Below, piece by piece: positions 14,160 to 64,000 of a stretch of DNA of 64,000 bases. Numbering within the stretch: position 1 is the stretch's first letter; every line of letters starts with the position of its first letter. Source of the stretch: an uncultured Thermoleophilia bacterium (GTDB taxonomy: Bacteria > Actinomycetota > Thermoleophilia > UBA2241); NCBI GenBank assembly GCA_963762125.1, contig CAVXJO010000007.1, forward strand, positions 167,950 through 231,949, in the 5' to 3' direction. Position numbers and translations under genes: made by a program. Below the pieces are notes generated by a model. That model was not told where the DNA came from and did no database searches. It was given only the letters and a program-made list of their open reading frames with translations.

Positions 14160-14202
14160 TCCCGGGTTTCCTCACGGCGGCTTCTTCGTTACGCTCCACG
14201 GC

Positions 14203-14736: not shown

Positions 14737-14998
14737 GCGCGGGGTCGACGAGCCAGCCTCCGGGAGAACGACGCGCCGGCTCGCGCGATCGGGCGCATCG
14801 CCCATCGGCCTCCTGCCGCGGCGCCTCTCTCTCCTCCCCCGGACCCCTCTTCGCGAACGGCGCATGGCGCTTGACTTTGCCCCCCGCAGCGATAGACGAT
14901 GCCCGTGATGCGGTCGAGCTAATCCGCATTGCGGACTACCTTGGAGTCACGCGCGACGGCCATCGCGTCCGGCTCCGCGTCAGCGACCATGGGGAGGT

Positions 14999-42697: not shown

Positions 42698-42774
<77 letters not shown>

Positions 42775-48901: not shown

Positions 48902-49635
48902 AGGTCTCCGGCGCGAGGGTGCTCGTGGTCGGCGGCATCCGCCGCCTCGGCGGCGCCGTCGCGCTCGACTTGGCCGGCCATGGCGCCGCTGTCGTTGTTT
49001 CGACGCGCGCGCGCACGCGTGCGGCGGACGACCAGGTGGCGGCGCTGACCGCCGCCGGAGCGCAGGCCGCCGCGCTTGTCGAGGGCGACGTCGGACGCGC
49101 CGCGGGTGCGGCAAGCCTCGTCGCCGCGGCCGCGGCGGCCCTCGGCGGGCTCGACGCACTGGTCTACGCGGCCAGCGGCCCGTTCGTGCCCCAGCCGCCG
49201 CAGGCGATCGACGAGGAGGCGTGGGACGCCTCGATGGACACGATCGCCAAGGGCTTCTTCTTCAGTGCCTGCGCCGCCCACGAACGCCTCTCTCAGGGCG
49301 GCGCGATCGTGGCTCTCACCGACTATCTCGGGCTGCAACCCTGGGCCACGTTCGCCGCGCACGGCGCGGCCAAGGCGGCCGAGATCCATCTGGTCAAGGA
49401 GCTCGCACGCGCGTGGGCGCCCGACGGCGTGCGCGTCTGCGGCGTCGCGCCGGGCCCGGTGGACCTCGAGGACGACGAGCACCGGGCCGCCACCCTCCGC
49501 GCCGCCGCCAGAGTGGCGACCGAGCGGCTCGTCGCGCCGGCCGACATCGGCGCCGCCGTGCGCTTCTGCCTGGAGACGGAGGGCGTCACGGGCGTCAACG
49601 TCGCCGTCGACAACGGCTCGCTGGTCATGGCGTGA
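48898..49635 (+). CDS. Short-chain dehydrogenase/reductase (SDR), translationally coupled to the upstream gene (ATGA overlap)
   Basis: Rossmann VLVVGGIRRLGGAVA. The catalytic Y-x-x-x-K is probably AHGAAKAAE in degenerate form. 245 aa. Confidence 0.75.
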   Translation: MKVSGARVLVVGGIRRLGGAVALDLAGHGAAVVVSTRARTRAADDQVAALTAAGAQAAALVEGDVGRAAGAASLVAAAAAALGGLDALVYAASGPFVPQPPQAIDEEAWDASMDTIAKGFFFSACAAHERLSQGGAIVALTDYLGLQPWATFAAHGAAKAAEIHLVKELARAWAPDGVRVCGVAPGPVDLEDDEHRAATLRAAARVATERLVAPADIGAAVRFCLETEGVTGVNVAVDNGSLVMA

Positions 49636-49691: not shown

Positions 49692-51341
49692 TCAGGCGGG
49701 TGTCGGCTTGCCCTTCTTGGACTGGTCGATGAGCTCCTTGGCTTTGAGCGCCAGCCAGAACTCCATGCGATCCTGAGACTGGTCGAGGTCGCGGCCGGTG
49801 ATCTCCTCGACGCGCTTCATGCGATAGCGCAGCGTGTGGCGGTGCACGTACAGCTTCTCGGCGGCGTCGCCCCAGTGGCCATTGGCCTCGAGGAAGCAGG
49901 CGAGGCTCTTGACCAGGTCGCTGGAGTTCTGTTCGTCGTACTCCTGGAGCTTGCCGAGGACGCTGTCGTAGAAGACCTCGAGCGACAGTGTGTCCTGCAG
50001 GCCAAGCAGCAGCCCGTAGGAGCCGAGATCGTCGAAGCTGGCGATGACGCGGGGCTCGCCCTTGAGCTTGCGGATCTTGATGGCGTAGCTGGCCTCGTAG
50101 TAGCTCTGACGGAGGTCGATGAGCTGCCGGTGCGGCCGGCCGATGCCGACGGAGACGGAGATCTCCGGCAACATCTCCGCGATGACGGCCTGCAGCTCCC
50201 CGGCCATCCTGATGATCTCCTCGGTGTCCCGCTTGCCCGGCTGCACCAGGATGACGACGGAGTCACTGCGCGACGCGCTGATGCAGAGCACGTCGCGTCG
50301 CGCCATGAACTCGTCCACGGTCCAGTGCAGGCGCTCCTTGATGTCCTGGGTGGCGGCCTCGGTGCGTTGTGCCGCCCCCTCGCCCTCGAGTACGTCGATG
50401 TCGACGAGCACGATGAGGTGCGGCGACTGCGGCTCGAGCCCGAAGAACGCGAGCCGCCGCGCGATCTCCTCCTCGTAGAGGTCGCTGGCGATGAGCTCGT
50501 CGAAGAAGTCGCCGGCGAGGCGCTTCTCCGTCTCGGCCACGGCCTTCTTCTTGACCAGCTCCAGCGCAGTCACCGTGACCACGTTGTGGAGGATGATGCG
50601 GTCGTACTCGCTGAAGTCGCCGCTGTCTTTGACGACGGCGAGGAAGGCGCCGATGCGGTGTGAGGCGACCACCGGGTAGACCTGTACGCCGGAGCCCACG
50701 CCGTCCATGCTGAGGGCGAAGTTCTGGCGGTCGGCGCGGCGGTCGCTGATGAGCCCCCACAGGTCGGCGACAAGCTCGGCGCCCAACTGGCGACGGTAGG
50801 CTGCCTCACAGAGCACCACGCCGTGGAAGTCGAAGAGGACGGCGGAGCAGCCGACGAGGGCCGAGAGCGTGGAGAGGATAGCCTCGAGGCCCTTCTCCTC
50901 CAGCACGATCTTGGTGAGCTTCTCGTGAACCGCGAGACTGCGCTGCAGCAGAGAGTACTGCTCGTTGACGATCTTGGAGGCCACGGCCTCGGTGATGGCG
51001 ATGAACGGCACGTGGTACGGCACCTCGAACAGCGGGAACCCGTACTCCTCGGCGACCCCGACGAGAGCGGGTGGTACCTTGTCGAAGCTGAAGCCGGTGC
51101 CGAACCCGAGGCCGGAGATGTTGTGGTCGATGAGGCGCTTGATCTGCGCCACCTGCTGCGCCTCGTCGCCGACGAAGCTGTAGCCCGTGGTGAGCAGCAG
51201 CTCGCCGCCCTTGAGCCACTTCGTGGGATCGGGGACCTCGGTGATGTGGACCCAGCGCACCGGGTTACTCGTGGACTTGTGTCCGGCCAGCAGACGCAGG
51301 TTCAACTCAGAGATCTCCAAGATGTCCTGCACGGTGATCAT
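49692..51341 (-). CDS. PucR-family transcriptional regulator
   Basis: N-terminal PucR-type domain (MITVQDILEISELNLRLLAGH…WVHITE…), GGDEF-like middle region, C-terminal HTH (LYVHRHTLRYRMKRVEEITGRDL). Confidence 0.85.
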   Translation of the reverse strand: MITVQDILEISELNLRLLAGHKSTSNPVRWVHITEVPDPTKWLKGGELLLTTGYSFVGDEAQQVAQIKRLIDHNISGLGFGTGFSFDKVPPALVGVAEEYGFPLFEVPYHVPFIAITEAVASKIVNEQYSLLQRSLAVHEKLTKIVLEEKGLEAILSTLSALVGCSAVLFDFHGVVLCEAAYRRQLGAELVADLWGLISDRRADRQNFALSMDGVGSGVQVYPVVASHRIGAFLAVVKDSGDFSEYDRIILHNVVTVTALELVKKKAVAETEKRLAGDFFDELIASDLYEEEIARRLAFFGLEPQSPHLIVLVDIDVLEGEGAAQRTEAATQDIKERLHWTVDEFMARRDVLCISASRSDSVVILVQPGKRDTEEIIRMAGELQAVIAEMLPEISVSVGIGRPHRQLIDLRQSYYEASYAIKIRKLKGEPRVIASFDDLGSYGLLLGLQDTLSLEVFYDSVLGKLQEYDEQNSSDLVKSLACFLEANGHWGDAAEKLYVHRHTLRYRMKRVEEITGRDLDQSQDRMEFWLALKAKELIDQSKKGKPTPA

Positions 51342-51447
51342 CGCCGGGATTCTACACGATGTCCAAGTACAGCGCGAGGGCGCGCGACCTCGGGACGAGG
51401 GGGCCTTTATACGTTCTGGCAGTCTGCAGGCGCCGGCGGCAGCGCCG

Positions 51448-53097
51448 CTACCGGCGCCGCAGAACCTGCCCGGGCAGCGCCGCGGTAGGCTCGCCCTCCT
51501 CGAGCACGGGCACACCGTTCACCAGGACCCAGTCGATGCCCTCCGGGGCCGCGTGCGGGATGTTCTCGAACGGGAACGAGTGCGGGTAGAGGTTCGTGGC
51601 CCGGTCACGCACACGGTCGAGGTCGAAGACCACGAGGTCGGCCTTGAGACCGGGGCGCAGCGCGCCACGGTCGAGGAGAAGGAAGCGCTGCGCCGGGAAG
51701 GAGGTCATCTTGCGGATGGCCTCCTCGAGGCGCAGCACCGGCTCGTCGCGCACGTAGCGCTCGAGCACGCCCGGGTACTCGCCGTAGCTGCACGGCCAGT
51801 ACAACGAGGCATCGTCGCTCTGGCCGGCCGGCGACATGACCAGCCCGTCAGACGAGATCATCGCGAGCGGGCTCTGCAGCAGGGCGCGGATGTTCTTCTC
51901 CTCGATGTAGTCGAAGAGGCCGATGATGTCGTCGTCCTCCTCGACGATGAGGTCGAGGAAGGTGTCGAAGCCGTCGGCGCCGCGCTCGGCGGCGATGTCG
52001 GCGACGGAGCGGCCGCGGAGTTCCGGATGGCGGCCGGCGTGGAACACGACCACGCGGTCGAAGCGGCCGTGACGGACCACGCCCGCGTAGCCGGCGCCCG
52101 GCAGCGTGTCCTCGAGCACCTCGCGTCTCAGCAGGGCGCGCCCTTCCGGGTCCGACAGCAGGAAGATCAACGCGTCGTGGTCAAGGTCGAGCACAGGCTG
52201 CGGCAGCGCCCGCGAGAGGCGCGGCGCGAGGTCGGTGTGCACGTCGTTGTCGGTGCTGGCGTCGAGCCCGGCGCGGCGAGCGTCCTCGATCAGCGCCAGG
52301 TTCGCCGACGCGTCCTCGGGAGCGCCCCACTTGGGCGCGTTGTGCGAGACCTCTACGGGGCAGCCGGAGGCGCGCCCGAGCTCGAGCGCCTCGGTGACCG
52401 CGGCGAGGATGGTCTCACGCTCGCCGCGGACGTGCGAGGTGTAGATGCCCTGGTGGCGGGCGACCACCTTGCACAGCCGCAAGAGCTCGTCCGTGGTCGC
52501 GAAGCACCCCGGCGGGTAGACGAGGCCGCTCGAAAGCCCGTGCGCGCCGGCGCGCAGGGAGGCGTCGAGCAGGCGCTCCATGCGCACCAGTTCGCGCTCG
52601 GTCACCGCTCGCTCCGCGAAGCCGACGACGGCGAGCCGCAGCGCCCCGTGGCCGACGAGCGGCGCGATGTTGATCGCGTGGCCGCCGCGCCGCAGAGCCG
52701 CGAGGTACTGGCCGAAGGTGCGCCAGTCCCAGGCCACGGTGTCGAGGCCCCAGGCGTAGTGCGCCCAGTTCTGGATGGCGTCGTCGCGGTGGGCCGCCGT
52801 CAGCGGAGCCGCCGACATGCCGCAGTTGCCGGTGACATGAGTCGTGACGCCCTGGCGCAGCGCCGTCTCTGCTTCCGGGTACAGCAGGATGGAAAGGTCC
52901 GAGTGCGTGTGCGGGTCGATGAAGCCGGGCGTGACGTAGCGGTCGCCGGCGTCGACGACACGCCGGCCGCGCAGCGTCCCCGGCGCGCCGATCGCCGCGA
53001 TACGCTCGCCGCGCACCGCGATGTCGCCGCGGTACCAGGGGTTGCCGCAGCCGTCGACGAGGCGCCCCCCGGCGACGACGAGGTCGTGGATCGTCAA
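51448..53097 (-). CDS. N-acyl-D-amino-acid deacylase (D-aminoacylase), amidohydrolase superfamily
   Basis: Small N-terminal beta domain (DLVVAGGRLVDGCG…GDIAVRGERIAAIG) and metal-binding TIM barrel (…GFIDPHTHSD…). 549 aa, similar to D-aminoacylases throughout. Confidence 0.8.
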   Translation of the reverse strand: MTIHDLVVAGGRLVDGCGNPWYRGDIAVRGERIAAIGAPGTLRGRRVVDAGDRYVTPGFIDPHTHSDLSILLYPEAETALRQGVTTHVTGNCGMSAAPLTAAHRDDAIQNWAHYAWGLDTVAWDWRTFGQYLAALRRGGHAINIAPLVGHGALRLAVVGFAERAVTERELVRMERLLDASLRAGAHGLSSGLVYPPGCFATTDELLRLCKVVARHQGIYTSHVRGERETILAAVTEALELGRASGCPVEVSHNAPKWGAPEDASANLALIEDARRAGLDASTDNDVHTDLAPRLSRALPQPVLDLDHDALIFLLSDPEGRALLRREVLEDTLPGAGYAGVVRHGRFDRVVVFHAGRHPELRGRSVADIAAERGADGFDTFLDLIVEEDDDIIGLFDYIEEKNIRALLQSPLAMISSDGLVMSPAGQSDDASLYWPCSYGEYPGVLERYVRDEPVLRLEEAIRKMTSFPAQRFLLLDRGALRPGLKADLVVFDLDRVRDRATNLYPHSFPFENIPHAAPEGIDWVLVNGVPVLEEGEPTAALPGQVLRRR

Positions 53098-54197
53098 CCC
53101 TCCCCCATCTCGAACGTCTCGTAAGGGTTCTCGCAGGGGGGACCGGCACAGGCATACATGCGGCGCTCATCGAGGTCGCAGATGATGCTTCCGACGGTCA
53201 TTCCTTGATCCGCCGGCGCCTCGTCTGAGTTGGGATGCCCGCAGATGCACTGGTCGCGCGACGGTTCGTGCGTGCGGAGGACCCGGGCGACGAGGTCCAC
53301 CGGGTCCTCAGCGACAGCGAGGCCCTCCGCGAGCATCCGTTCGGCGGTCGAGAGACGCACGACCGACTCCTCCGCGGCGCGCCCCTCGTAGGGCTGCATC
53401 TCCGGGGAGACGTAGTGGTTCGAGTGCGCCATGAACCCTGCTTGGGTGTGGTCCATGAGGGCGTGCGCGTTCGCCGACGTCTCGAGGTCCCAGAGGCGGC
53501 CGGCCGTGTCGGCAAGGAACTGGTTGGTGCCGCGGGCGCGGGCGGCGAGCAGGCCCTGGCCCCACGCCTCCTCCATCGTCCGCGCTTCGAGGGCCGCGCG
53601 GCGCACGAAGACGTTGGGCACGCCGATGCGATTGTCGTTGGAGTGCACCGAGTTGCTGACGTTGCCGATGCCGTGGCTGTTCATGCCCAACATCAGCAGG
53701 TACGGCGCCCCGGCGAGGCCCATGATCCGGGTGCCGTCCGGTCCGGTGAGATCGAAGAGGACGTTGTTGACGGCGTCGATGACGTACCAGTCCATGTTGT
53801 GCCCCACGATGTGGCGTCCGCCTGAAGCAACGGCGACGGCCGTGCAGTGATCGCCCGACCGTGGCGATCCCGACGGCGTAGAGACGGCCGGCTCCTCGGC
53901 GGTGAACTCCTCGCCGCAGTTCAGTACCAGCAGTCGGGACATGGGCACGTCGGCGCCTTCAGCCAGACCCTCCAGTTCCTCGACCTGGCCGGGCAGCCAG
54001 CGGCGCGCCTGCGCGGCGTAGGAGAGCGCCTCCCGCTCGGCCGCGGCGAAGGACAAGCGGCCGCCGGTCATGGACATGAAGTTCTCACGGAAGAAGGCGA
54101 CCGAGGCCAGGACCTGCTCGCGCGCCGCCTCTCCGACGGCGCGACCGAGTTCCCGGTACGTGCCCCTCGCCTGAACGTGCACGAACGCGATACCCAT
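53094..54197 (-). CDS. C45-family peptidase / acyl-CoA:6-aminopenicillanic-acid acyltransferase-like Ntn hydrolase
   Basis: 367 aa. …RSGDHCTAVAV… is the putative self-processing site exposing an N-terminal Cys. Overall AAT/C45 topology. Overlaps the D-aminoacylase stop. Confidence 0.7.
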   Translation of the reverse strand: MGIAFVHVQARGTYRELGRAVGEAAREQVLASVAFFRENFMSMTGGRLSFAAAEREALSYAAQARRWLPGQVEELEGLAEGADVPMSRLLVLNCGEEFTAEEPAVSTPSGSPRSGDHCTAVAVASGGRHIVGHNMDWYVIDAVNNVLFDLTGPDGTRIMGLAGAPYLLMLGMNSHGIGNVSNSVHSNDNRIGVPNVFVRRAALEARTMEEAWGQGLLAARARGTNQFLADTAGRLWDLETSANAHALMDHTQAGFMAHSNHYVSPEMQPYEGRAAEESVVRLSTAERMLAEGLAVAEDPVDLVARVLRTHEPSRDQCICGHPNSDEAPADQGMTVGSIICDLDERRMYACAGPPCENPYETFEMGEG

Positions 54198-54206
54198 ACG
54201 GCCAGT

Positions 54207-55682
54207 CTACAGCCCGAGCACGCGGCGCGGGTCGGGGTGGCCAGTCAGTCCGAGCTCAGCGGCGCAGCGGGCGATGAGGGCGACGAGCTCGTCGAGCACG
54301 TCGTCCGGGAGGCCGACCGGCTCGCGGTCGGCGAGCTCGGCCGCCTTGTCCGTGGCGAGGTCGACGAGGCCCGCGCGCCCGGAGGCGAGCCAGTCGCCGA
54401 GTCCGCCGCGATAGCTGAGCAGGGGGCTGACGAACTCGCTGCGGATGTAGCGCCGCGTGTGCTTCGTGCCGAGGAACCCGCGCCCGGAGAGCACGCCGTC
54501 GACCATCGCGTCCACGTCGAGCGCGTCGATGTCCCACGGGCGCGGCGTGAGGGCGTAGCGCACGTTGTTGAGTACTTCGTCGTCGATGACGAGCGCCTCG
54601 AGGCAGCTGGCCACGCCGGCCTGGATCTCACCGACGCCGGAGAGCAGGCGCGGCTTGGGCGCCAAGCCCAGCAGGGCGTTGATCGAGCGCTCGTAGCCGA
54701 ACTGCGCGTCGACGACTTTGCTGTCGCTGCAGGGCCCGTAACAGTCGCAGGCAAGGCCGCAGCGACGCGCCAGAAGCACCGCCGCCGCCGAGGCGACGCC
54801 CGTCTCCGGCGTGCCGCTGACCACCACGCCGCTGCGCGGGTCCACGGCGCTGAGACGCGGCCCATAGTAGACCGGCGTGCCCGCCGCCGCGGCTTGGGTG
54901 AGCACGACTCCGGCGAGCACCTCGGCGTGCTGCTGCGCGAGCGCCGCCGACAGAGCGCCGGGCGCCGTGGTGGCGGCGGCAGGGCAGGGCAGGATCTCGA
55001 CGGCCACGCCTCCGCGGCGTGCCTGAGACGTGAGTGCATCCGAGACGTCGCCGCCGAGGATCAGCGGGCTCACCGGAGAGAAGGCGAGGTCGATCGCATA
55101 CACGCCGTCCGCGCCGTCCGCGCCGGTCACCGCCTGCGCCATCTGCTGCAGGTACTGCGCCTGGAACGGATAGGAGATGCCGGGGCCGCCGATGGCCTTG
55201 TCGGTCTCGTAGGCGAGGATCAAGAACGAGTACAGCGGCTCGAGCAGATCGGGCACGTCCTCGGGCTGCCAGAGGGAGGTGACCTGCTCCTGGTGCACGA
55301 GGTTGTGCATGATCCTGGTCGCGAGCACCTGGTCACGCAGCGTCGCCCTGCGCCCCGCTCCCGTGCGCGGGTCGCTGACGTCGCGGGCGCCGCCCATGTT
55401 GTGGACGTAGGTCACGCCCGGGTCCGGATCCATGGCGAGTGAACGCTCGGGATCGCGCGCCGCGAGCACGTACTCGCGCGGACAGGCGGCGAGGGCGTCC
55501 GCCACAGCCTGCGGCGGCACGGTCAGGCGGTCCTCCCCGGCGGGACGACAGCCCGCCGCGACCAGCAGGTCCCGCGCGGCGGGCGACTCCACCCGCACGC
55601 CGGCCCGCTCCAGCAGGCCCAGCGCGGCGAGATGCATCGCCTCGATCGCTTCGTCGGGCCAGACGGCGGCGGGCTCGATCAT
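54207..55682 (-). CDS. MttB-superfamily (trimethylamine methyltransferase-like) non-pyrrolysine methyltransferase. It probably demethylates a quaternary or tertiary amine such as a betaine.
   Basis: 491 aa uninterrupted TIM-barrel MttB fold with no in-frame amber codon, so not Pyl-dependent. It overlaps the SBP gene stop. Confidence 0.75.
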   Translation of the reverse strand: MIEPAAVWPDEAIEAMHLAALGLLERAGVRVESPAARDLLVAAGCRPAGEDRLTVPPQAVADALAACPREYVLAARDPERSLAMDPDPGVTYVHNMGGARDVSDPRTGAGRRATLRDQVLATRIMHNLVHQEQVTSLWQPEDVPDLLEPLYSFLILAYETDKAIGGPGISYPFQAQYLQQMAQAVTGADGADGVYAIDLAFSPVSPLILGGDVSDALTSQARRGGVAVEILPCPAAATTAPGALSAALAQQHAEVLAGVVLTQAAAAGTPVYYGPRLSAVDPRSGVVVSGTPETGVASAAAVLLARRCGLACDCYGPCSDSKVVDAQFGYERSINALLGLAPKPRLLSGVGEIQAGVASCLEALVIDDEVLNNVRYALTPRPWDIDALDVDAMVDGVLSGRGFLGTKHTRRYIRSEFVSPLLSYRGGLGDWLASGRAGLVDLATDKAAELADREPVGLPDDVLDELVALIARCAAELGLTGHPDPRRVLGL

Positions 55683-57559
55683 GTGGCGTCATCCTTCCGG
55701 GTCGGTCGTGCCTCGTGCTTCGTCACGTGTCCGCCGCCGCCCTCTGATCGCCGGCGCAGGAGAGCAAAGATCAGCGCGCCGGCGGCGATGAGCGCGGCGA
55801 TCACCAGCCACACCCAGACCCTGGACGCCTCCGGCGCCGGCAGTGAGGCGCCCAGCGGACGGAGCTTGATGTACGTCGTGCGCAGCTGGTTCCAGAAGGG
55901 GGCGCGGGCGCCGGCCGGCGCAAGCGCGTACCCCGTCCAGGTCTCGGTGCGGAAGGACTGCAGGTTGGCCTTGTACCACAAGACGATGGACGGATCGTCG
56001 CGATAGAGGACCTTCTGCATCGCGTCGACGAGCTCCTTCCGCCTCGCGCCGTCCTCCGGCGCCGCGGGGTCGAGAGCCTCGGCCTGCAACTCGTAGAGGC
56101 GGTCGTACACGAGGTCGGAGTACCGGGTGTCGCTCCAGTCCATGATCTGCCCGGTCGTGAACGTGCTGAGGATGAAGCCGGGGTCGACGTCGCCGCCCCA
56201 GCTCCAGATGAACAGGTCGTCATCGGCACGGTGATAGATGTCGTCGCTGATATCCGCGGTGCTCTTGACCTCGAGTCGCAGCCTGATGCCGATGTCCCTG
56301 CACCAGCGCACGATCATGCGCGCGGCCGCCTGGTCCTCCGGGTGCTCGGACGGCGCCGCGATGCGGAAGGAGAGCTCCTCCCCGCCGTCGTCCTCTCGCA
56401 CCCCGTCCGCGTCGCCGTCGGTGTAACCGGCGTCTTCGAGGATCTGCTTTGCCCGTTGCGGGTCATACCGGTACTGCGCCGCCTCCGGCACGTCCCAGCG
56501 CCAGCCGCTCTGCGCGGGCGAGAGCAGTGAGGACCCGGGGACGGCCTGCGCGGCCATGACCGTCTCGGCGAGCTTCTTCGTGTCGATGGCCCAGTGCACC
56601 GCCCGGCGGATGGAGGGATCCAGCAGGAGCGGGTTCCCCTTGCTCCTCGGGCTGTGCCAACAGTTGAAGCCGAGCTCGTGGAATCCGATGGCGGGAACGG
56701 CCACCGTGGTGACTCCGGGAATCGCCGCCACGGCGTCGGCGGAGGCGGGTGGATAGTCGCTGATCGCGTCCAGCGCTCCGGACCGGTAGTCTCGCAGCAT
56801 CACCTCCGGGTCCTGCTCGACGACGAACGTCAGTTCGTCGAGCGAGGGACGGCCGCCGAGCGCGGAGGGATAGTCCTGGTTCGCCTCGAGCCGCACGAAC
56901 CGGCCCCTTTGCATCGTCGTGACGCGGAAGGGTCCGGACCCGACGAAGGGCTCGTTGTCGAACCACTTGAGCTCGTCGGGCCGCACCGTCTTCCAGATGT
57001 GCTCGGGAAGGATCGGGATCGCGACGCCGAGCATGTCCGCCTTGGGGCGCCGCGTCGTGATCATCACCGTGGCGTCGTCGGACGCCTCGACACGACTCAC
57101 GCCGGTAAGGTAGTGGCTGTAGACGGGCTCTTGCGAGTCGCGGATCAGGTTGTACGTGAATGCGACGTCGCGCGCCGTGAGCGGCTCGCCGTCCTGCCAC
57201 GTCATGCCCTCCCGGATGTGGAACGTCCAGACCAGGCCATCATCTGAGAGCTCCCAGCTGGCGGCGATGTCGGGCGCCGGGCGGTAATCGGAGTCGAACC
57301 AGGTGAGGTAGTCGTAGCCCAGCAGGAAGCACTCCCGAGACACGGGACTCCAGGCGCTGAACGGGTTCAACCCGTCGCTTGGCTGGCCGACGCCGATGCG
57401 GTACTCGACCGGCGCCGGCGACGGCGAGGCTGAGGCGGGAGCGGGCGGAGCGAGCGCCAGAGCGGCGACCAGGGTCAGCAACAGGAGGGCGCAGGCCGCG
57501 CTGCTCCGCGCAGGCGCGGCTCCAGCGTCACTGCGTCTCATCTCCCGGCTCCTTCGCAT
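55679..57559 (-). CDS. ABC transporter substrate-binding protein, family 5 (peptide/opine/nickel type), with an N-terminal signal peptide and an unusual C-terminal transmembrane anchor
   Basis: SBP_bac_5 fold (…ASWELSDDGLVWTFHIREGMTWQDGEPLTARDV…). C-terminus …SRVWVWLVIAALIAAGALIFALLRRRSEGGGGH…. Confidence 0.8.
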   Translation of the reverse strand: MRRSREMRRSDAGAAPARSSAACALLLLTLVAALALAPPAPASASPSPAPVEYRIGVGQPSDGLNPFSAWSPVSRECFLLGYDYLTWFDSDYRPAPDIAASWELSDDGLVWTFHIREGMTWQDGEPLTARDVAFTYNLIRDSQEPVYSHYLTGVSRVEASDDATVMITTRRPKADMLGVAIPILPEHIWKTVRPDELKWFDNEPFVGSGPFRVTTMQRGRFVRLEANQDYPSALGGRPSLDELTFVVEQDPEVMLRDYRSGALDAISDYPPASADAVAAIPGVTTVAVPAIGFHELGFNCWHSPRSKGNPLLLDPSIRRAVHWAIDTKKLAETVMAAQAVPGSSLLSPAQSGWRWDVPEAAQYRYDPQRAKQILEDAGYTDGDADGVREDDGGEELSFRIAAPSEHPEDQAAARMIVRWCRDIGIRLRLEVKSTADISDDIYHRADDDLFIWSWGGDVDPGFILSTFTTGQIMDWSDTRYSDLVYDRLYELQAEALDPAAPEDGARRKELVDAMQKVLYRDDPSIVLWYKANLQSFRTETWTGYALAPAGARAPFWNQLRTTYIKLRPLGASLPAPEASRVWVWLVIAALIAAGALIFALLRRRSEGGGGHVTKHEARPTRKDDAT

Positions 57560-57628
57560 GCTCGAACGTGGGCCGGCCGGGGCGGTGAGCGCCTTGCTGC
57601 CTCACCGCCCCGGCCAGCCGCTCCTCCG

Positions 57629-58672
57629 CTACTTGATCCTGATACAGGCGGCGTAGTGGTCACCGCCGATGTGGACGTCCTCGGGATCGATCTGCTTACA
57701 GTCGTCGATCGCCTCCGGGCAGCGCGGGTGGAAGCGGCAACCAGTGGGGATGTCGACCGGGTTCGGGGTCTCCCCCTTGAGGATGACGTGCTCGCGCCGG
57801 GCCAGCGGGTCGGGCACGGGGATGACGCTGATCAGCGCCTTGGTATAGGGGTGCTGGGGGTTGGCGACTACCTCTTCGGTGTCGCCGATCTCGACGATGC
57901 GGCCAAGGTACATCACGGCGATCCGGTCGCTGATCACCCAGGCCAGCGAGAGGTCGTGGGTGATGAAGATGTAGGTGACGCCAAGCTTCTCCTTCTCCTC
58001 CACCATCAGCTTGAGGATGTCGTTGCGGATCGAGACGTCGAGCGAGGCGACCGGCTCGTCGGCGACGATCACGTCCGGGTCGAGCACCGTGGCGCCGGCG
58101 ATGCAGACACGCTGCCGCTGCCCGCCGCTGAGCTCGTGCGGGTAGCGGTACAGATACTCGATCGCCGGCCTGAGGCCGGCCTCGTTGATGGCGGTGATGA
58201 CCTTCTCTTCCTTCTCGCGCTCGCTCGAGCAGATGTTGTTGACCTCGAGGGGCTCGGCGACGATGTCGAAGATCGTCTGCTTGGGATTGATCGAGTTGTA
58301 GGGGTCCTGGAAGATGATCTGCGCCTTCCTGCGGTAGGCGCGCAGCTCCCTGCCGCTGAACTGCTGCACCGGCTTGCCCTTGTAGAGGATCTCGCCGCCG
58401 GTGGCTTCTTCCAGGCGCAGCAGGGTGCGGCCCGTGGTCGTCTTGCCGCAGCCGGACTCCCCGACCAGGGCGATGATCTCGCCCTTCTTGATCTGGAAGC
58501 TGATGTGGTCGACCGCCTTCACGAACTGCTTCTCGCTCGACACCATGCTCTTGAAGAAGCCCTGGTGAATGGGGAAGTAGACCTCCAGGTCCCTGATGTC
58601 GAAGAGGACGTCGCCGGTCTCGGGGGCGAGCTTGAGGTCCGGGCGTTCCGTTTGCTCCGTGGCCATCGTCAC
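57629..58672 (-). CDS. Oligopeptide/dipeptide ABC transporter ATP-binding protein (OppF/DppF-like)
   Basis: Walker A GESGCGKTT, signature LSGGQRQRVCIA, C-terminal oligopeptide-ATPase domain (…CRFHPRCPEAIDDC…). Confidence 0.88.
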   Translation of the reverse strand: MTMATEQTERPDLKLAPETGDVLFDIRDLEVYFPIHQGFFKSMVSSEKQFVKAVDHISFQIKKGEIIALVGESGCGKTTTGRTLLRLEEATGGEILYKGKPVQQFSGRELRAYRRKAQIIFQDPYNSINPKQTIFDIVAEPLEVNNICSSEREKEEKVITAINEAGLRPAIEYLYRYPHELSGGQRQRVCIAGATVLDPDVIVADEPVASLDVSIRNDILKLMVEEKEKLGVTYIFITHDLSLAWVISDRIAVMYLGRIVEIGDTEEVVANPQHPYTKALISVIPVPDPLARREHVILKGETPNPVDIPTGCRFHPRCPEAIDDCKQIDPEDVHIGGDHYAACIRIK

Positions 58673-59754
58673 ACCCCCTTCAAGTGCGGTGTAGCCCCGC
58701 CCGCCTCAACGAAAGCGTCATCACGCCGGGCCTTCGCGTGGACGCAGCGCACGAAGTGCCCGCGCTCCACCTCGGTGAGGCCGGGGTGCTCCGTCTTGCA
58801 GCTCTCGATCCTCACATCGCAGCGCGGCTCGAAGGCGCAGCCCGCGGGCGGGTTGATGAGGTTGGGCGGGTCGCCCTTGATCGAACTCACCATCTCGCGC
58901 TTCTCGTGGATGTTGGGGAACGCCTTGATCAGCTGGCGCGTGTAGGGGTGCGTGGCGTTGTTGAAGATGTCGGCGGTACTGCCGCTCTCGACCACCTCGC
59001 CGGCGTACATGACGACGCCCTTGTCGCAGGTCTCGGCCATGACCGAGAGGTCGTGGCTGATGAGGATGAACGACAGATCGAGCTCCTTGCGCAAACGCCC
59101 GATGAGCTCGAGGATCTGCGCCTGCACCATGACGTCGAGCGCCGTGGTGGGCTCGTCGCCGATGACCAGCTTGGGGTTGCAGGCCAGGGCCATGGCGATC
59201 ATGGCGCGCTGGCGCATGCCGCCGGAGAGCTGGTGCGGGAAGTCCATGACGCGCTTAGGGTTGATGCCCACAAGGTCGAAGAGCTCGCGCGCGCGCACCA
59301 TCGCCTGCTTCTCGCTGAGTCCCTCGTGCAGCTGGATGGGCTCGGCGATCTGCTTGCCCGTCTCCTTGACCGGGTTGAGCGCGTTCATCGCCCCCTGGAA
59401 GATGATGCTGATCTCCTTCCAGCGGATCTTACTCATGCCGAACTCGGTGCGCTTGACGAGGTTGCGGCCGTCGAACAGGATGTCGCCGCTGACGATGCGG
59501 CCGTTCTCGGGCAGCAGCTTGAGCAGGCTCAGCGCCGCGGTCGTCTTGCCGCAGCCGGACTCACCGGCGAGGCCCAGGCTCTCGCCGGGCTTGACCTGGA
59601 AGGAGACGTCCTGCACGGCCTTGACGTCGCCGATGCCGAGCTTGAAGTAGGTGGTCAGGTTGCGTACGTCGAGCAGACCTTCGTGCTCGATGCGCTCGGT
59701 CGCCTTCTTCTCGGGGCCGGCCTTGCCCTTGGCCTTGGGGGCGGTGGTCGCCAT
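58669..59754 (-). CDS. Oligopeptide/dipeptide ABC transporter ATP-binding protein (OppD/DppD-like)
   Basis: Walker A GESGCGKTT, signature LSGGMRQRAMIAMAL, C-terminal …CAFEPRCDVRIESC…. Confidence 0.88.
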   Translation of the reverse strand: MATTAPKAKGKAGPEKKATERIEHEGLLDVRNLTTYFKLGIGDVKAVQDVSFQVKPGESLGLAGESGCGKTTAALSLLKLLPENGRIVSGDILFDGRNLVKRTEFGMSKIRWKEISIIFQGAMNALNPVKETGKQIAEPIQLHEGLSEKQAMVRARELFDLVGINPKRVMDFPHQLSGGMRQRAMIAMALACNPKLVIGDEPTTALDVMVQAQILELIGRLRKELDLSFILISHDLSVMAETCDKGVVMYAGEVVESGSTADIFNNATHPYTRQLIKAFPNIHEKREMVSSIKGDPPNLINPPAGCAFEPRCDVRIESCKTEHPGLTEVERGHFVRCVHAKARRDDAFVEAGGATPHLKGV

Positions 59755-61295
59755 CAGTCCTCCCCCTTGTCGTCGTCTGCTATGTGGCCGCCGACCCAGC
59801 CGCCACCCTCGGGGCGGCCGATGGAGCCGCCGGCCGGCTTGTCGAAGTCGGGCATGGCGTCGTCGGTCTGCTGGCCCGGCGTGAACATGCCGGCGCTGCC
59901 GCCGAGGCCGGCGCCGCCGGCCACGGCGATCGCCGGCTCGCCGCGAGCCGTGAACCGGCTCTCAGTGCTGCTGTCCTCACGCTTGCGCAGCTTGGGATCG
60001 AGCACCTCGTCGTAGGCCGTGCCGATGAAGGTGAAGGCGAGGACGACGAGGATGATGGCGATGCCCGGCGGCAGCAGGTACCACCAGGCCGGCAGACCGG
60101 CGGCGCCGTTCACCCACGCGTAGTGGAGCATGGTGCCCCAGCTGAAGTTGAGCGGGTCGCCGAGGCCCAGGAACGAGAGCGTCGTCTCCGAGAGGATGGC
60201 GATGGCCACGACGAGCACCAGATTGGCGAAGATGAGCGGCATCACGTTGGGCAGCACGTGCTTGGTCATGGTGTGCCGGTTGCTGGACCCGATCGCCTTG
60301 GCGCGCTCGATGAAGCTCAGCTCGCGCACGCGCAGCACGTCCGAACGTATGACTCGTGCCGTGCCCGGCCAGCTGGTGATGCCGATGATGAGGATGATCA
60401 TCCAGTAGTTCTGACCCCAAGCGGCGGCGAGCACCATCGCGAGCGGCAGCCATGGGATGACCAGGAACGCGTCTGTTAAGCGCATCCACCCCTCGCCTTG
60501 CCAGCCTCCGTAGAAACCGGCGGCGATGCCGATACCGGCGCCGAGGACGGTGGACATGAAGGCGGCCAAGAGGCCGACCATGAGCGAGATACGTGCGCTC
60601 CAGATGAACTGGGCGAGCACGCTCTGCCCCACCTGATCGGTACCGAACCAGTTGTAATAAGACAGGGTCGGCGGGTGATACGGGCCGTAGAGCTCGCCCG
60701 TGGCCGGATCCTTGATCTGCGCGTTGGGATCGAGCAGTGCGTGGTCGGCCAGGAACGGAGCCAGAAGCGCCATGAGCATGAAGACGACGAGGATGCCCAG
60801 ACCGACCATGCCCTGCCAGTTGGCGCGGTACAGCCTCCACACCTGATGCGTGTTCCAGGTGGTGAGCTCCGCCCGCTCCGGGTTGCCCGCGGCCCAGAAC
60901 CAGGCACAGGCGCCGCCAAGGACGACGGCCACCGTCTGCAGGGCCCAGTTGTAGGAGATCTCGTTGACGCTGCCCGACCAGCCTCCAGCTCCACTGGCGC
61001 CGGCAAGGTAGCCCCAGACGAAGAACACGACGGCCTCCGCGACGAGAAGCAGGTTCATGACCTTGGCCTTGGCCCTGCGAAGGAGCCCGATCGCCCCGCC
61101 AAGGAGACAGAGGAGGCCGACCAGGATCAGCGCCCATGCCGGGTAGGCGCCGACACTTGCGGAGAAGAAGCCCTTGATCACCTCGGAAAGGCCGCTGGCG
61201 AGGGGCACCGTCTTCGGATACGTGAGCAGCTCGAGGACGACCCAGACGACGATCGTCCAGAAGATCACCCAGTTCCGGAAACGACGGGGGATCAT
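59754..61295 (-). CDS. ABC transporter permease (OppC/DppC-like) with an N-terminal multi-TM extension of about 140 aa and a Gly/Asp-rich C-terminal tail
   Basis: Core BPD_transp_1 permease (…SWPGTARVIRSDVLRVRELSFIERAKAIG…). Extra N-terminal hydrophobic segments. The low-complexity C-terminus ends …GGHIADDDKGED. Confidence 0.8.
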   Translation of the reverse strand: MIPRRFRNWVIFWTIVVWVVLELLTYPKTVPLASGLSEVIKGFFSASVGAYPAWALILVGLLCLLGGAIGLLRRAKAKVMNLLLVAEAVVFFVWGYLAGASGAGGWSGSVNEISYNWALQTVAVVLGGACAWFWAAGNPERAELTTWNTHQVWRLYRANWQGMVGLGILVVFMLMALLAPFLADHALLDPNAQIKDPATGELYGPYHPPTLSYYNWFGTDQVGQSVLAQFIWSARISLMVGLLAAFMSTVLGAGIGIAAGFYGGWQGEGWMRLTDAFLVIPWLPLAMVLAAAWGQNYWMIILIIGITSWPGTARVIRSDVLRVRELSFIERAKAIGSSNRHTMTKHVLPNVMPLIFANLVLVVAIAILSETTLSFLGLGDPLNFSWGTMLHYAWVNGAAGLPAWWYLLPPGIAIILVVLAFTFIGTAYDEVLDPKLRKREDSSTESRFTARGEPAIAVAGGAGLGGSAGMFTPGQQTDDAMPDFDKPAGGSIGRPEGGGWVGGHIADDDKGED

Positions 61296-62260
61296 GCCTG
61301 CACCCTTGGGTCGAGGTAGTAGTACATGATGTCGGCGATGAGGTTGGCGACGATCACGGCGATGCTGGCGATGAGGAACACCAACTGCATGACCGGGTAG
61401 TCGCGCTTCTGCATGGAGTCGAAGGACAACAGCCCGAGTCCGGGCCAGTTGAACACGGCCTCCGCCAGGATCGCACCCGACATCACGAAGCCGAGGTTCA
61501 TCATCACGATGGTCACCGTCGGCAGCATCGCGTTGGGCACCACGTGGCGCCAGAGGACAGCGTTCTCGCTGAGGCCTTTGGCGCGAGCGGTGAGCGCGAA
61601 GTCCTCCTTCATGACACCGGTGATGGAACTGCGCATGATGAGGTGGTACTCACCCACGTAGGCGATGGCGAAGGTGAACGCCGGCAGGAACAGGTGCTTC
61701 ATCAGCGACTGGAAGGAGGCGAAGCCGGTGAGGTCCGCGCCGGGCTCCGCCATGCGGCCTGTGGGGAACCAGCGCAGCTTGGTGGAGAACAGCATGATCA
61801 TCAAGAGGCCGAACCAGAACGTGGGCATGGCGTATAGGACCATCCCTAAGTTCGTCGACACCACGTCGTAGGTGCCGTTCCGTCTCCACCCGGCGAACAC
61901 CCCCATGATCATGCCGACCACAGTGGCGAAGACGGTGCCCACCCCCACGAGCAGGACGGTAGGCCAGATGCGTTCTGCGACCACTTCGGTGACCGGGCGC
62001 TTCTCGGAGAAGGAGAGGCCGAACTTACCCTGCACCGTGTCGCGCCAGTAGTAGATGAACTGCTGCCACATCGGCTTATCGAGGTTGAAGGTCTTGCGCT
62101 GACGCTCGATGACCGACGGGTCGGTCTTCCCCTTGGGGAGAAGGAGCCGGGCGGGGTCGCCCGGGAGGATGCGGAAGAGCGCGAAGTTGAACGAAGCCAC
62201 GAGGACGATCGTGAGTATCGCGTTCAGCACCTTGCGAATGAAGTAGCGTCGTTTGTCCAC
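61292..62260 (-). CDS. ABC transporter permease (OppB/DppB-like)
   Basis: 322 aa, 6 TM, conserved loop …LTARAKGLSENAVLWRHVVPNAM…. Confidence 0.88.
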   Translation of the reverse strand: MDKRRYFIRKVLNAILTIVLVASFNFALFRILPGDPARLLLPKGKTDPSVIERQRKTFNLDKPMWQQFIYYWRDTVQGKFGLSFSEKRPVTEVVAERIWPTVLLVGVGTVFATVVGMIMGVFAGWRRNGTYDVVSTNLGMVLYAMPTFWFGLLMIMLFSTKLRWFPTGRMAEPGADLTGFASFQSLMKHLFLPAFTFAIAYVGEYHLIMRSSITGVMKEDFALTARAKGLSENAVLWRHVVPNAMLPTVTIVMMNLGFVMSGAILAEAVFNWPGLGLLSFDSMQKRDYPVMQLVFLIASIAVIVANLIADIMYYYLDPRVQA

Positions 62261-62581
62261 TGCCCTGCGGGTCGCCGAGCGCTCGGACCAGACCGCCGGC
62301 GGACCCTTGCCTCCTTCTCACATCCGTGGTTGCCGGACCCCTGACACTTGCTGTGCTGCCACTGTGGTGGAGGACCCGCGATGGGGCCTTGAGGATTTAG
62401 ACGACGCGAGGGCAAGGTTCCGTCGACCGCGCCGAGGATCGGCGGCCGTGCCGGTGACGACGGGCCTGGGTGACGAGCGTCTCGCCGTGTGCAACCCCCC
62501 TGCCGGCCCGGAGGCCCGCGGAGCGCAGGGCCGGGCTAGGACGTCATCGTAGACTCCGCGCGGAGGCGCGGCAAGGCGCGG

Positions 62582-63694
62582 CTAAGCCCCCGGCAGACGC
62601 GCCTCGCGCCCAGCTCGCCGCAAGGCGCCGACCAGGCGGTCCAGCGGCAGCTCGTACGCCATGTTGCCGCCGCGGCCGATCGTGGTGGTCGCGGCGGTGA
62701 GCGCGTTGCAGACGCTCTCCGCTGTGGCGTCGACCGCCGCCTCGAAGAGCTCCGTCATGCGGTCATTGGAGACGCTGGTGAGGACGAGCGGCTCGTCCGC
62801 TTGTCGCGGCACCCGATAGGCGGTGGAGAAGGCGAGCATGATCTCGCCGCTGCCGTCCGAAGCGTAGGAGCCGGTCGCAGCCAAGCCAAGCGCACAGCGC
62901 TTGGCCATGCGCTCGCACTGCCGCGCACTGAGCGGCGCGTCGGTCGCAAGAACGACGATGCAGGAGCCCTCGCGGTTCTCCAGCGGCATGAGGTCGGTGA
63001 TCTCCCGGCCCACCGGCACGCCGTCGACGCTGAGGCGGTGACGCACGCCGAAGTTGGTCAGCGCCAGCACGCCGACGGTCCAGGAGCGCCCATGGGCGGA
63101 GACGAGCCGAGATGAGGTACCGATGCCGGCCTTGAAGTCGAAGCACGTCATACCGGTACCGGCGCCGACGCATCCTTCAGCCACCGGCCCGTCGGAGGCG
63201 CCGTCGAGTGCGGCGCGCACGTGCTCATCCTTGACGTGCATGCCGCGCAGGTCGTTGAGGAACCCGTCGTCGCACTCGCCGACGACCGGCATGACCGCGT
63301 CCTCGACGCCGGCGAGCGGCTCGCGCTCCATGAGCCAGCGCACCGCGGCGTCGTAGACGGCGCCGGCGCTCTGCGAGTTGGTGAGCAGGACCGGCGTCTC
63401 CAGCAGGCCCCACTCGCGCACGGCGCTGATGCCGATGAGTTCGCCGACGCCGTTGGCCGCATACGCGCCGCCCACGACGCGCTGGTGCCAGAGGTCGTCT
63501 CCGTGCGGAAGGATCGCGGTGACGCCCGTGCGGGCGGGCCCGCTGCCGCACGGCAGCTCGGGCCCGCCCCACGAGACGGTGCAGTGGCCGACGCGCACAC
63601 CCGGCACATCGGTGATCGCATTGAGCGGTCCGGCCGGCAGCCTGCCGACGGCGACACCGAGGTCGCGCAGGCGGCAGCGCTCCGGCGCCGTCAC
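62582..63694 (-). CDS. P1/S58-family self-processing aminopeptidase (DmpA-like; L-aminopeptidase/D-Ala-esterase-amidase family)
   Basis: 370 aa. DmpA/OAT Ntn fold with a Gly-Ser processing region (…GAGTGMTCFDFKAGIGTSS…). Confidence 0.75.
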   Translation of the reverse strand: MTAPERCRLRDLGVAVGRLPAGPLNAITDVPGVRVGHCTVSWGGPELPCGSGPARTGVTAILPHGDDLWHQRVVGGAYAANGVGELIGISAVREWGLLETPVLLTNSQSAGAVYDAAVRWLMEREPLAGVEDAVMPVVGECDDGFLNDLRGMHVKDEHVRAALDGASDGPVAEGCVGAGTGMTCFDFKAGIGTSSRLVSAHGRSWTVGVLALTNFGVRHRLSVDGVPVGREITDLMPLENREGSCIVVLATDAPLSARQCERMAKRCALGLAATGSYASDGSGEIMLAFSTAYRVPRQADEPLVLTSVSNDRMTELFEAAVDATAESVCNALTAATTTIGRGGNMAYELPLDRLVGALRRAGREARLPGA

Positions 63695-63698
63695 GCGG

Positions 63699-64000
63699 TT
63701 ACTCCAGCATGCCGGCGCGGTGAGCCGTGAGGTAGCCGCCGCAGAAGTTGTCTTCGCCGCGCAACGCCTCGATGGCCTTGATCGTGGCTATCATCTGCTT
63801 GTTGCGCACGTCGAGGACGGCCCCATCGATGCCCAGGCCCGCGCACATCGCGACGAAAGTGCGGTTGAGCAGCGGACGATTCGGCAGACCGAAGCTCACG
63901 TTACTGAGGCCGCCGGTGGTGCGTACGGGAAGCTGCTCCTTGACCATCTTGAGGGTCTGCATGGTGACTGCGGCAGCCTGACCGTCGGCGGACACCGAGA
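63699..64000 (-). CDS. 3' portion of a pterin-binding methyltransferase (MtrH / methylcobalamin:THF methyltransferase MtgA-like); continues beyond the window
   Basis: The C-terminal peptide …LKMVKEQLPVRTTGGLSNVSFGLPNRPLLNRTFVAMCAGLGIDGAVLDVRN… matches the pterin-binding TIM barrel of MtrH/AcsE/MetH-type methyltransferases. Confidence 0.65.
   Translation of the reverse strand, partial: SVSADGQAAAVTMQTLKMVKEQLPVRTTGGLSNVSFGLPNRPLLNRTFVAMCAGLGIDGAVLDVRNKQMIATIKAIEALRGEDNFCGGYLTAHRAGMLE

Follow-up and report, generated by a model that had tools for sequence, protein, structure and literature searches.

A conserved gene cluster of uncultured Thermoleophilia couples an Asp-type MttB homolog to an Opp/Dpp-type importer and amide hydrolases: a candidate system for methylammonium demethylation

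Non-pyrrolysine homologs of the trimethylamine methyltransferase MttB number in the thousands; five substrates have been established for them, all acidic quaternary amines, and surveys label the remaining homologs "MtxB." We analyzed one such homolog and the genes around it in a 64,000-nucleotide (nt) stretch of DNA, here called the window, from an uncultured Thermoleophilia bacterium (GenBank assembly GCA_963762125.1, contig CAVXJO010000007.1, positions 167,950 to 231,949 of the forward strand; G+C content about 68%). In Desulfitobacterium hafniense, the glycine betaine:tetrahydrofolate methyltransferase system MtgB/MtgC/MtgA (DSY3156/3155/3157, with RamA DSY3152) encodes a non-pyrrolysine first methyltransferase (MT1) with a pterin-binding second methyltransferase (MT2). 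The Ruegeria pomeroyi MtgBCD system has an MttB-family MT1 in a nonmethanogen; there MtgB, MtgC, MtgD, and RamA lie at separate loci, so that corrinoid protein, MT2, and RamA/DUF1638 are dispersed, and glycine betaine demethylation uses MtgC/MtgD in common with a split methionine synthase (PMC12478193). The Eubacterium limosum enzymes MtpB, MtcB, MtyB, and MthB (proline betaine, carnitine, gamma-butyrobetaine, phosphocholine) belong to the same superfamily, each with a TIM-barrel pocket adapted to its quaternary amine. Arg312 is kept in MtgB and in these four proteins, forming a salt bridge to the acidic group of the substrate (PMC13080624).

The window locus resembles the D. hafniense system in encoding a non-pyrrolysine MT1 with a pterin-binding MT2. 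The folds are alike, the MT1 matching MtgB structures (9yce, also 2qne; E = 3e-38) and the MT2 having MeTr-type relatives, and a two-step methyl transfer is presumably alike too. It differs in having no adjacent corrinoid protein or RamA, in the replacement of four betaine-binding residues in an MT1 with only one-quarter to one-third of its residues identical, in an Opp-type importer operon that includes three amide hydrolases, and in its regulator. Compared with R. pomeroyi, the MT2 lies inside the cluster and the corrinoid carrier alone is absent from the locus, the substrate pocket is different, and the host, an actinobacterium, has an AOR gene as well, which suggests an anaerobe. None of the E. 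limosum enzymes is reported beside C45, S58, or D-aminoacylase-type hydrolases or Opp-type importers. An earlier sequence-only reading of this DNA, which proposed import and stepwise dismantling of a peptide or betaine-type compound together with methylamine demethylation, did not recognize the gene combination as a described pathway, and we likewise came across no description when we searched the literature for this set of genes and for MttB in Thermoleophilia. Gene coupling and recurrence across lineages make import, dismantling, and corrinoid/tetrahydrofolate demethylation of a conjugated methylated amine still the best reading. What the sequences establish is the identity, coupling, and conservation of the genes, purifying selection on them, the lost glycine-betaine pocket, and the recurring association; the direction in which methyl groups flow, the need for a corrinoid in this organism, the sequence of steps, the kind of substrate, and the regulation are predictions. 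We think it somewhat probable that the locus serves the catabolic uptake and corrinoid/tetrahydrofolate-dependent demethylation of a methylammonium compound, probably amide linked, in UBA2241 Thermoleophilia. Positions 49692 to 64000 hold eleven genes, all co-oriented on the minus strand, and open reading frame (ORF) translations with Pfam and NCBIfam calls placed every gene family named in the earlier reading where it had been said to lie. In order of transcription, these are as follows (ABC, ATP-binding cassette; Ntn, N-terminal nucleophile).

63699-64000, minus strand: MeTr/AcsE-type pterin-binding methyltransferase (MT2), last 99 codons and stop, cut by the window end; PF00809
62582-63694, minus strand: peptidase S58 (DmpA/BapA family) Ntn aminopeptidase/amidase; PF03576, 385 bits
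62261-62581, minus strand: intergenic region of 321 nt, with Shine-Dalgarno (SD)-like GAAGGAGG and a covarying hairpin in its last ~65 nt
61292-62260, minus strand: OppB/DppB-type ABC permease (PermB); PF19300 and PF00528
59754-61295, minus strand: OppC/DppC-type ABC permease (PermC); PF12911 and PF00528, matching from residue 150 onward
58669-59754, minus strand: OppD-type ABC ATPase; PF00005 and PF08352
57629-58672, minus strand: OppF-type ABC ATPase; PF00005 and PF08352
55679-57559, minus strand: family-5 solute-binding protein (SBP; SBP_bac_5); PF00496, 259 bits
54207-55682, minus strand: non-pyrrolysine MttB-superfamily protein ("MtxB"), putative MT1; PF06253, 216 bits
53094-54197, minus strand: C45-family autoproteolytic Ntn hydrolase/acyltransferase; PF03417 and NF040521
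51448-53097, minus strand: D-aminoacylase-like amidohydrolase (Amidohydro_3); matches PDB 1m7j
49692-51347, minus strand: PucR-family transcription regulator; PF07905, PF17853 (GGDEF_2), and PF13556 (HTH_30)

The MttB homolog matches PF06253 over residues 3 to 478 of 491 (216.4 bits; cutoff, 25). Its ORF has no in-frame stop, and Cys318 aligns with the pyrrolysine (X) of MttB 7xcl, a further PDB match (6e-40). Trimethylamine methyltransferase MttB proper was considered and rejected, since there is no pyrrolysine and TIGR02369 scores 240.7 bits against a cutoff of 525. Identity to MtgB is about 25 to 30%, and none of the four MtgB residues that contact glycine betaine (Y97, R312, H348, and F356) is kept. 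In both alignments used, pairwise HMMER and MAFFT, R312 corresponds to D313 and F356 to Gly, while H348 falls on Ser (HMMER) or a gap (MAFFT) and Y97 on Met (HMMER) or Gly (MAFFT). D313 sits in an ungapped block anchored by the motif DSKxVDAQxGYE and is invariant in 16 clade members. Across ~130 aligned cluster representatives, the R312 position is most often occupied by Asp (or Asn), as it is in the window protein and in the majority of the representatives of 50%-identity clusters nearest to it; Arg together with His348 marks only MtgB-like sequences. The clade is narrow, with only ~5 full-length 50%-identity clusters at 44 to 54% identity in the representative search and the next at 37% or less. 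Because all four betaine-binding residues are replaced, Arg312 by Asp313, the protein is not a characterized betaine enzyme; it classifies as an MtxB of an uncharacterized Asp type, a putative substrate:corrinoid methyltransferase, and the residues now lining the pocket (Met/Gly, Ser/gap, and Gly) would be compatible with a larger or nonacidic substrate. Its ratio of nonsynonymous to synonymous substitutions (dN/dS) of 0.12 to 0.23 indicates purifying selection, and the gene is therefore not decaying.

These replacements bear directly on the possibility that the locus performs ordinary betaine demethylation, of glycine betaine, proline betaine, carnitine, or gamma-butyrobetaine, with the hydrolases irrelevant. 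PucR-type regulators control proline utilization in Bacillus and mycobacteria, which fits that explanation, as do the MT1-plus-MT2 architecture, similar to that of D. hafniense MtgB/MtgA, and an aldehyde dehydrogenase gene upstream in close relatives. Two relatives moreover carry a proline dehydrogenase gene (L164, 1162-2139; L166, 1230-2207; PF01619, 98.8 bits) that shares an overlap with the S58 gene end and stands ahead of ABC-SBP-MttB, a hint that the pathway may yield proline or a related imino acid. Set against this, the residue at Arg312 is a clade-invariant Asp313 with Y97, H348, and F356 replaced as well, identity to MtgB is low, the transporter is of the Opp/Dpp type and not OpuA/BCCT, and the aldehyde dehydrogenase reaches none of the NCBIfam equivalog cutoffs. 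We consider ordinary betaine demethylation improbable, and glycine betaine, proline betaine, and carnitine, the substrates suggested by the sequence-only reading, were rejected as unlikely because of the change of the carboxylate-binding Arg312 to Asp (PMC13080624).

The cluster is conserved, and its genes are translationally coupled. Overlaps of 4 nt join PermB/PermC, the two ATPases, SBP/MttB, and C45/amidohydrolase; PermC overlaps the first ATPase by 1 nt, and the spacers between the pterin methyltransferase and S58 (4 nt) and between MttB and C45 (9 nt) are short. Larger gaps occur at three junctions only: S58/PermB (321 nt), second ATPase/SBP (69 nt), and amidohydrolase/PucR (100 nt). The earlier reading had placed PucR and a beta-lactamase-fold gene just upstream. 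PucR is in fact the last minus-strand gene, 3' of the operon, and the beta-lactamase-fold gene lies on the opposite strand, convergent with PucR, in a two-gene unit with a short-chain dehydrogenase/reductase (SDR) gene that it overlaps by ATGA and that was absent from the earlier gene list.

48898-49635, plus strand: SDR oxidoreductase; best NCBIfam match PRK09135, below cutoff, and generic SDR matches in PDB
47891-48901, plus strand: class A beta-lactamase-fold serine hydrolase, cytoplasmic; NF033103, 158 bits, below cutoff

A scan with one genome per species found 78 orthologous loci, all in uncultured genomes. Most are from Thermoleophilia or "Actinomycetota" (MttB identity, 61 to 93%), and ~15 are of Chloroflexota type (Chloroflexia, Limnocylindrales; 62 to 68%). 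The cluster is kept in ~60 uncultured Thermoleophilia genomes of GTDB order UBA2241, among them the type genome of that order (L034) and a member of its genus Bog-752 (L078). Genes were counted in loci with full flanks, 33 at 70% MttB identity or more (close) and 10 from Actinomycetota at 55 to 70% (divergent). PucR is present in every one of both groups; the pterin methyltransferase and the SDR gene are each in 33/33 close and 9/10 divergent loci, C45 is in 32/33 and 10/10, and the importer is in 32/33 close and 10 to 11 divergent loci. Other genes thin out with distance: S58 (32/33 and 6/10), amidohydrolase (31/33 and 1/10), beta-lactamase fold (29/33 and 2/10), and aldehyde dehydrogenase (21/33 and 0/10). 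The core is thus the methyltransferase pair, the ABC importer, C45, and PucR, with C45 the hydrolase that accompanies the MttB homolog most constantly, S58 and amidohydrolase accessory, and the beta-lactamase-fold gene peripheral; the stepwise dismantling proposed earlier, as a fixed route through S58, amidohydrolase, beta-lactamase-fold, and aldehyde dehydrogenase genes alike, is not supported by this pattern. Minimal versions consist of pterin methyltransferase-SBP-MttB-PucR (L042) or of ABC-SBP-MttB alone (L162), and in L062 a creatininase-family gene occupies the amidohydrolase slot. Purifying selection acts on every gene of the cluster (dN/dS, 0.07 to 0.27; SBP, 0.35). In several loci from MFD-named metagenome-assembled genomes (L001/L003, L005, L051, and others), S58, permease, SBP, and pterin methyltransferase genes appear split by frameshifts, which are probably assembly errors and not pseudogenes because neighboring genomes hold intact copies.

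A sister MtxB subfamily in unrelated metagenome contigs provided a comparison outside the class. The scan used a 6-sequence outgroup alignment, an 18-sequence version being too diverse, and 34 loci of at least 8 kb were analyzed. The outgroup proteins are 33 to 39% identical to the window MttB homolog, and their surroundings include an Opp/Dpp-type importer in ~19 loci, C45 in 5, an amidohydrolase 58 to 59% identical to that of the window in 3 (L083, L115, and L122), an MeTr-like MT2 in 3, S58 in 1, and a true MtxC corrinoid protein in 4. C45 directly precedes MtxB in L083 and L122. One strand of the former carries, in order, C45, amidohydrolase, MttB, MttB, and corrinoid protein, and the other AsnC, C45, MtxB, family-5 SBP, and permeases, for a total of one corrinoid protein, three MttB paralogs, two C45 genes, an amidohydrolase, and an ABC importer. 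In the latter, C45, a D-Ser-dehydratase-like gene, and an amidohydrolase lie opposite C45-MtxB-SBP-permease. An S9 peptidase precedes MtxB in L114 and an M20 peptidase follows it in L100. Because the gene order differs from that of the window, MttB homologs of this kind are linked to Opp-type uptake and amide hydrolases by function and not by inertia, and in these lineages the linkage extends to corrinoid proteins. Together with the proline dehydrogenase of L164/L166, the D-Ser-dehydratase-like gene of L122 hints at amino acids as end products.

From these observations we propose the following scheme. The Opp/Dpp-type importer would take up a methylammonium compound other than the established acidic betaines, probably one that is amide linked (peptide-like or N-acylated). 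C45 would cut amide bonds, exposing the methylated amine or processing the remainder, and in many lineages S58 and the D-aminoacylase-like amidohydrolase would cut amides as well. The MttB-family protein, as MT1, would use the substrate to methylate a Co(I) corrinoid protein, from which the MeTr-type enzyme, as MT2, would pass the methyl group on to tetrahydrofolate. The corrinoid protein and its reductive activase would be encoded elsewhere in the genome, as in R. pomeroyi and Methanolobus vulcani, and the adjacent PucR-family protein is the presumed activator. Methyl flow could also run the other way, from methyl-tetrahydrofolate through the corrinoid to an amine, in which case the cluster would make a methylated compound; MeTr and MtgD-type enzymes are reversible. 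We give this anabolic direction very little credence, as the methyltransferases are surrounded by an SBP-dependent importer, several hydrolases, and a catabolic-type PucR, the cluster holds no biosynthetic genes, and the characterized MttB-family members are all demethylases.

Several observations weigh against the catabolic scheme. The Asp/Asn-type MttB group has no characterized member, so that methyl transfer is an extrapolation for it, and the outgroup loci that carry corrinoid genes are of the Asn type and not the Asp type. Genus Bog-752, to which L078 belongs, is named among the most active bacterial mtxB expressers in a study of Stordalen Mire, a point in favor of the scheme; that study, however, screened bacteria for mtxB only, assigned no substrate, and does not single out the ortholog of the window gene. 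Alanine dehydrogenase and AOR, which are unrelated neighbors, are likewise syntenic; within-class conservation alone is therefore weak evidence and partly phylogenetic inertia. Chloroflexota orthologs stand alone without partners, and S58, amidohydrolase, beta-lactamase-fold, and aldehyde dehydrogenase genes are lost in divergent relatives. Synteny of this extent in a class with generally stable gene order, the variable hydrolases, the partnerless Chloroflexota genes, and the 321-nt gap that parts pterin methyltransferase-S58 from the remaining genes would all be expected from a simple juxtaposition, namely, a peptide (possibly D-amino-acid) salvage system comprising the ABC importer, S58, C45, amidohydrolase, and beta-lactamase-fold protein beside a separate MttB/MeTr pair acting on another, separately imported compound. 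The position of the MttB gene inside the unit, between SBP (4-nt overlap) and C45 (9-nt spacer), its persistence with SBP in both minimal loci, and the recurrence of MtxB with C45, amidohydrolase, and Opp-type ABC genes in other orders in unrelated contigs all speak for a joint function, and we judge juxtaposition unlikely, if the most serious of the competing explanations.

The remaining points against catabolic demethylation concern the corrinoid partner, which the sequence-only reading suggested seeking, with a RamA-type activator, past the window end. The window ends within the pterin methyltransferase (frame-2 translation ...GGLSNVSFGLPNRP...AHRAGMLE and stop), and what lies past position 64000 was deduced from orthologous loci in relatives. 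Full-length orthologs have 267 amino acids (aa) (L005, 1108-1908), score 288 with NF005719 (cutoff, 259), and have MeTr (2yci/2e7f) and the D. hafniense O-demethylase MT2 (4o0q) as closest solved relatives; the enzyme, previously called MtrH/MtgA-like, is thus of the MeTr/AcsE type (PF00809) and not MtrH. In close relatives, the rest of the methyltransferase gene is followed outward by a 74-aa Arg-rich ORF, the aldehyde dehydrogenase, a PHP phosphatase, and GroEL. The small ORF (L002, 2706-2930, and orthologs) is conserved between the aldehyde dehydrogenase and pterin methyltransferase genes and has no family match, and a conserved TATACT box lies ~45 nt upstream of the pterin methyltransferase. 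In divergent relatives, a large ORF upstream of that gene was considered as a corrinoid protein or RamA and proved to be a GAF-GGDEF-HD-GYP signaling protein.

Neither the window nor the first 80 loci (two fetched contigs and the 78 of the genome scan) yielded a corrinoid protein to a regular expression for the B12-binding motif, and the same expression recovers genuine corrinoid proteins in outgroup contigs, so the search works. Tblastn with five genuine corrinoid proteins against the window and all loci gave a single match, and Pfam calls on the rest of the window ORFs revealed housekeeping genes and a molybdate/tungstate block, with no corrinoid protein and no RamA. The exception is L064 (1-108), a Thermoleophilia locus at a contig edge. 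Its first 103 nt code for the last 34 residues of an MtxC-type corrinoid protein (GAPPTRAGADESGADGYAEDALVAGAAAKRLVGAE and stop; 68% identity, E = 4e-6), and the fragment ends 370 nt upstream of the permease gene. It is the sole case in a cluster of this clade; relatives of L064 have no second corrinoid gene, and S58, proline dehydrogenase, or BNR genes lie upstream there. Apart from this fragment, neither the 64-kb window nor the 10-kb surroundings in ~75 orthologous loci revealed a corrinoid protein or RamA. Two components of the three are therefore encoded together (MT1 with an MT2 carrying the Pterin_bind domain in 33/33 close and 9/10 divergent Actinomycetota loci), and a corrinoid gene beside MT1 was not found by motif or tblastn search within 10 kb. 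The lack of a nearby corrinoid partner, which the earlier reading had said would refute it, is what the loci show, and it is not decisive because the partners are dispersed in R. pomeroyi (PMC12478193) and in M. vulcani, where MtgA and the activase are distant from MtgB/C (Table S2, PMC10805028).

The same result invites another explanation, that the MttB homolog works without a dedicated corrinoid protein, using free cobamide or a shared MetH-type B12 domain with the MeTr-like enzyme, or that it has a role other than methyl transfer. Recombinant MtgB and MtgA are active with free cobalamin in vitro (PMC13080624), the R. pomeroyi MtgC doubles in methionine synthesis (PMC12478193), no corrinoid gene accompanies MT1 and MT2 in ~75 orthologous loci even though these two are always together, and no established substrate-binding residue is kept. 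The L064 cluster bears its corrinoid-protein fragment, and the sister subfamily adjoins MtxC-type corrinoid proteins, both of which argue the other way. Nor is an MeTr-type MT2 known to have a role in the absence of a corrinoid methyl carrier (MeTr/AcsE, MtgA). Function without a dedicated carrier seems to us quite unlikely.

The three hydrolases of the operon keep intact catalytic motifs. S58 matches 2drh (1e-92), DmpA 1b65 (1.5e-71), and BapA 3n2w, with the self-cleavage and nucleophile G/S motif REG/SCIVVLATDAPL at residue 243; its dN/dS is 0.15 to 0.24, and it is absent in L063 and L065 to L067. C45 scores 183.6 with NF040521 (cutoff, 85), and its candidate nucleophile is Cys118 in GDHC/TAV, a cleavage site that we take to correspond to Gly102-Cys103 of AAT. 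The amidohydrolase matches the Alcaligenes D-aminoacylase 1m7j (9e-72), the N-acyl-D-Glu deacylase 3gip, and the carbohydrate de-N-acetylase 9kb3, and has the metal and catalytic motifs (HxH 63/65, C92, H222, H252, and D417). What the amidohydrolase and S58 have in common with D-aminoacylase, 3gip, and DmpA/BapA is strong sequence similarity with intact metal-ligand or nucleophile motifs. The amidohydrolase nevertheless differs from the D-aminoacylase family in an insertion of ~50 aa and a PRK09061 score of 146, below the NCBIfam cutoff of 340; the family also includes carbohydrate de-N-acetylases, and stereospecificity is not readable from sequence. The families named by the earlier reading hold up, whereas D-stereospecificity, one of the preferences that it gave the hydrolases, is presumed from family names only. 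The beta-lactamase-fold protein has SxxK (S47), SDN (S107), and KTG (K278); a true class A beta-lactamase was rejected, as ExxLN (Glu166) and a signal peptide are lacking and NF033103 scores 158 against a cutoff of 200.

The importer comprises five genes of the Opp/Dpp type: one SBP, two ATPases, and two permeases. "Peptide-type," as it had been called, is right for the transporter family and does not carry over to the ligand, since the best solved relatives of the SBP (Thermotoga 4pft and 1vr5) bind mannosides or oligosaccharides. The SBP has a signal peptide and a C-terminal hydrophobic membrane anchor followed by a charged tail. Coupled to the MttB homolog by its 4-nt overlap, it is the fastest-evolving gene of the cluster, with 50 to 70% identity where its neighbors have 80 to 95%, and it is relocated in some loci. 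The OppC-type permease is extended at its N terminus by a membrane region of ~140 aa and ends in a Gly-rich tail; the OppB-type permease has a dN/dS of 0.07 to 0.17. In two loci (L016, 11536-15832, and L018), a second SBP (~40% identity) and an MttB paralog (54%) are inserted between amidohydrolase and PucR, which suggests modular SBP-MtxB cassettes using one common permease/ATPase set.

The PucR N-terminal, GGDEF-like, and HTH_30 domains all score above Pfam cutoffs, and the dN/dS of the gene is 0.07 to 0.14. The cluster had been described as PucR regulated; the domains and the adjacency are confirmed, and control of the cluster is presumed from family name and adjacency only. The pattern upstream of PucR (window positions 51348-51470, minus strand) is described from orthologous loci rather than from a base-by-base reading of the window. 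A TGTAGAAT extended -10-like box is conserved ~7 nt before the PucR ATG in close relatives, so near the start codon that it suggests a leaderless mRNA, and a GTACAA...TGTAC inverted repeat flanking the -35 region may be an auto-operator. Conserved boxes also precede the pterin methyltransferase, PermB, and the beta-lactamase-fold gene; among these boxes, no common PucR operator motif is evident by eye. Ahead of PermB (62261-62330, minus strand), the SD-like GAAGGAGG is conserved clade-wide ~50 nt before the GTG start. Next comes a hairpin with a closing stem that is 88% paired and shows 10 compensatory cells (variants GGGUC/GACCC, GGGCU/AGCCC, GGGCC/GGCCC, and GGACC/GGUCC). None of 500 shuffles reached this value, and slid controls gave 29 to 64%. 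The hairpin has no Rfam match and could be a structured SD-to-start spacer or a novel regulatory leader. No cobalamin, tetrahydrofolate, or glycine riboswitch was found in the cluster and the 321-nt gap, and a promoter/terminator scan returned no more sites than shuffled sequence. For the SDR, a pteridine or dihydrofolate reductase assignment was considered and is unsupported (PRK09135, 132 bits against a cutoff of 288; PDB matches to generic SDRs). Its motif VGGIRRLG resembles TGxxxRxG, which we take to be the FolM/PTR1 signature, and serves as a lead only.

Elsewhere in the window, a molybdenum/tungsten-cofactor riboswitch (11063-11221, plus strand; 57 bits, cutoff 36) precedes a molybdate/tungstate-type ABC importer (SBP_bac_11, permease, and ATPase with TOBE) and MobB, in a block (7045-16195) flanked by two pyrogallol-hydroxytransferase-like molybdopterin oxidoreductases. 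The AOR-family (tungsten enzyme) gene lies at 44516-46261. Positions 19005 to 44000 hold genes unrelated to the cluster: the housekeeping genes ispF/ispD, carD, radA, clpC, mmpL, lysS, greA, dus, nadC/nadB, folB, folE, ftsH, and hpt, with an MIP channel, an NlpC/P60 gene, and a tRNA (42701-42774, minus strand).

The cluster offers a testable handle on an uncharacterized part of the MttB family, through its matched SBP, amide hydrolases that constrain the chemistry, and an Arg-to-Asp/Asn pocket change that predicts a nonacidic or conjugated substrate. We advance, as a possibility well short of probable, that the Asp/Asn-type MttB branch demethylates a new class of substrate, methylammonium groups on amide-linked conjugates that are imported by Opp-type transporters and trimmed by Ntn and metallo-amidases, with the corrinoid carrier in Thermoleophilia held in common or encoded elsewhere. 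Amino acids of small peptides that are trimethylated N-terminally or on the side chain, the head groups of N-acyl trimethylornithine or trimethyllysine, and betaine amides are speculative candidates for such conjugates. Carriers of the cluster abound in soil and sediment metagenomes from Denmark, as well as in the peat of thawing permafrost, where they are already counted as "methylotrophs." Naming the substrate would fill in a missing part of C1 and nitrogen turnover in soils and wetlands, and of how methanogenic precursors are competed for.

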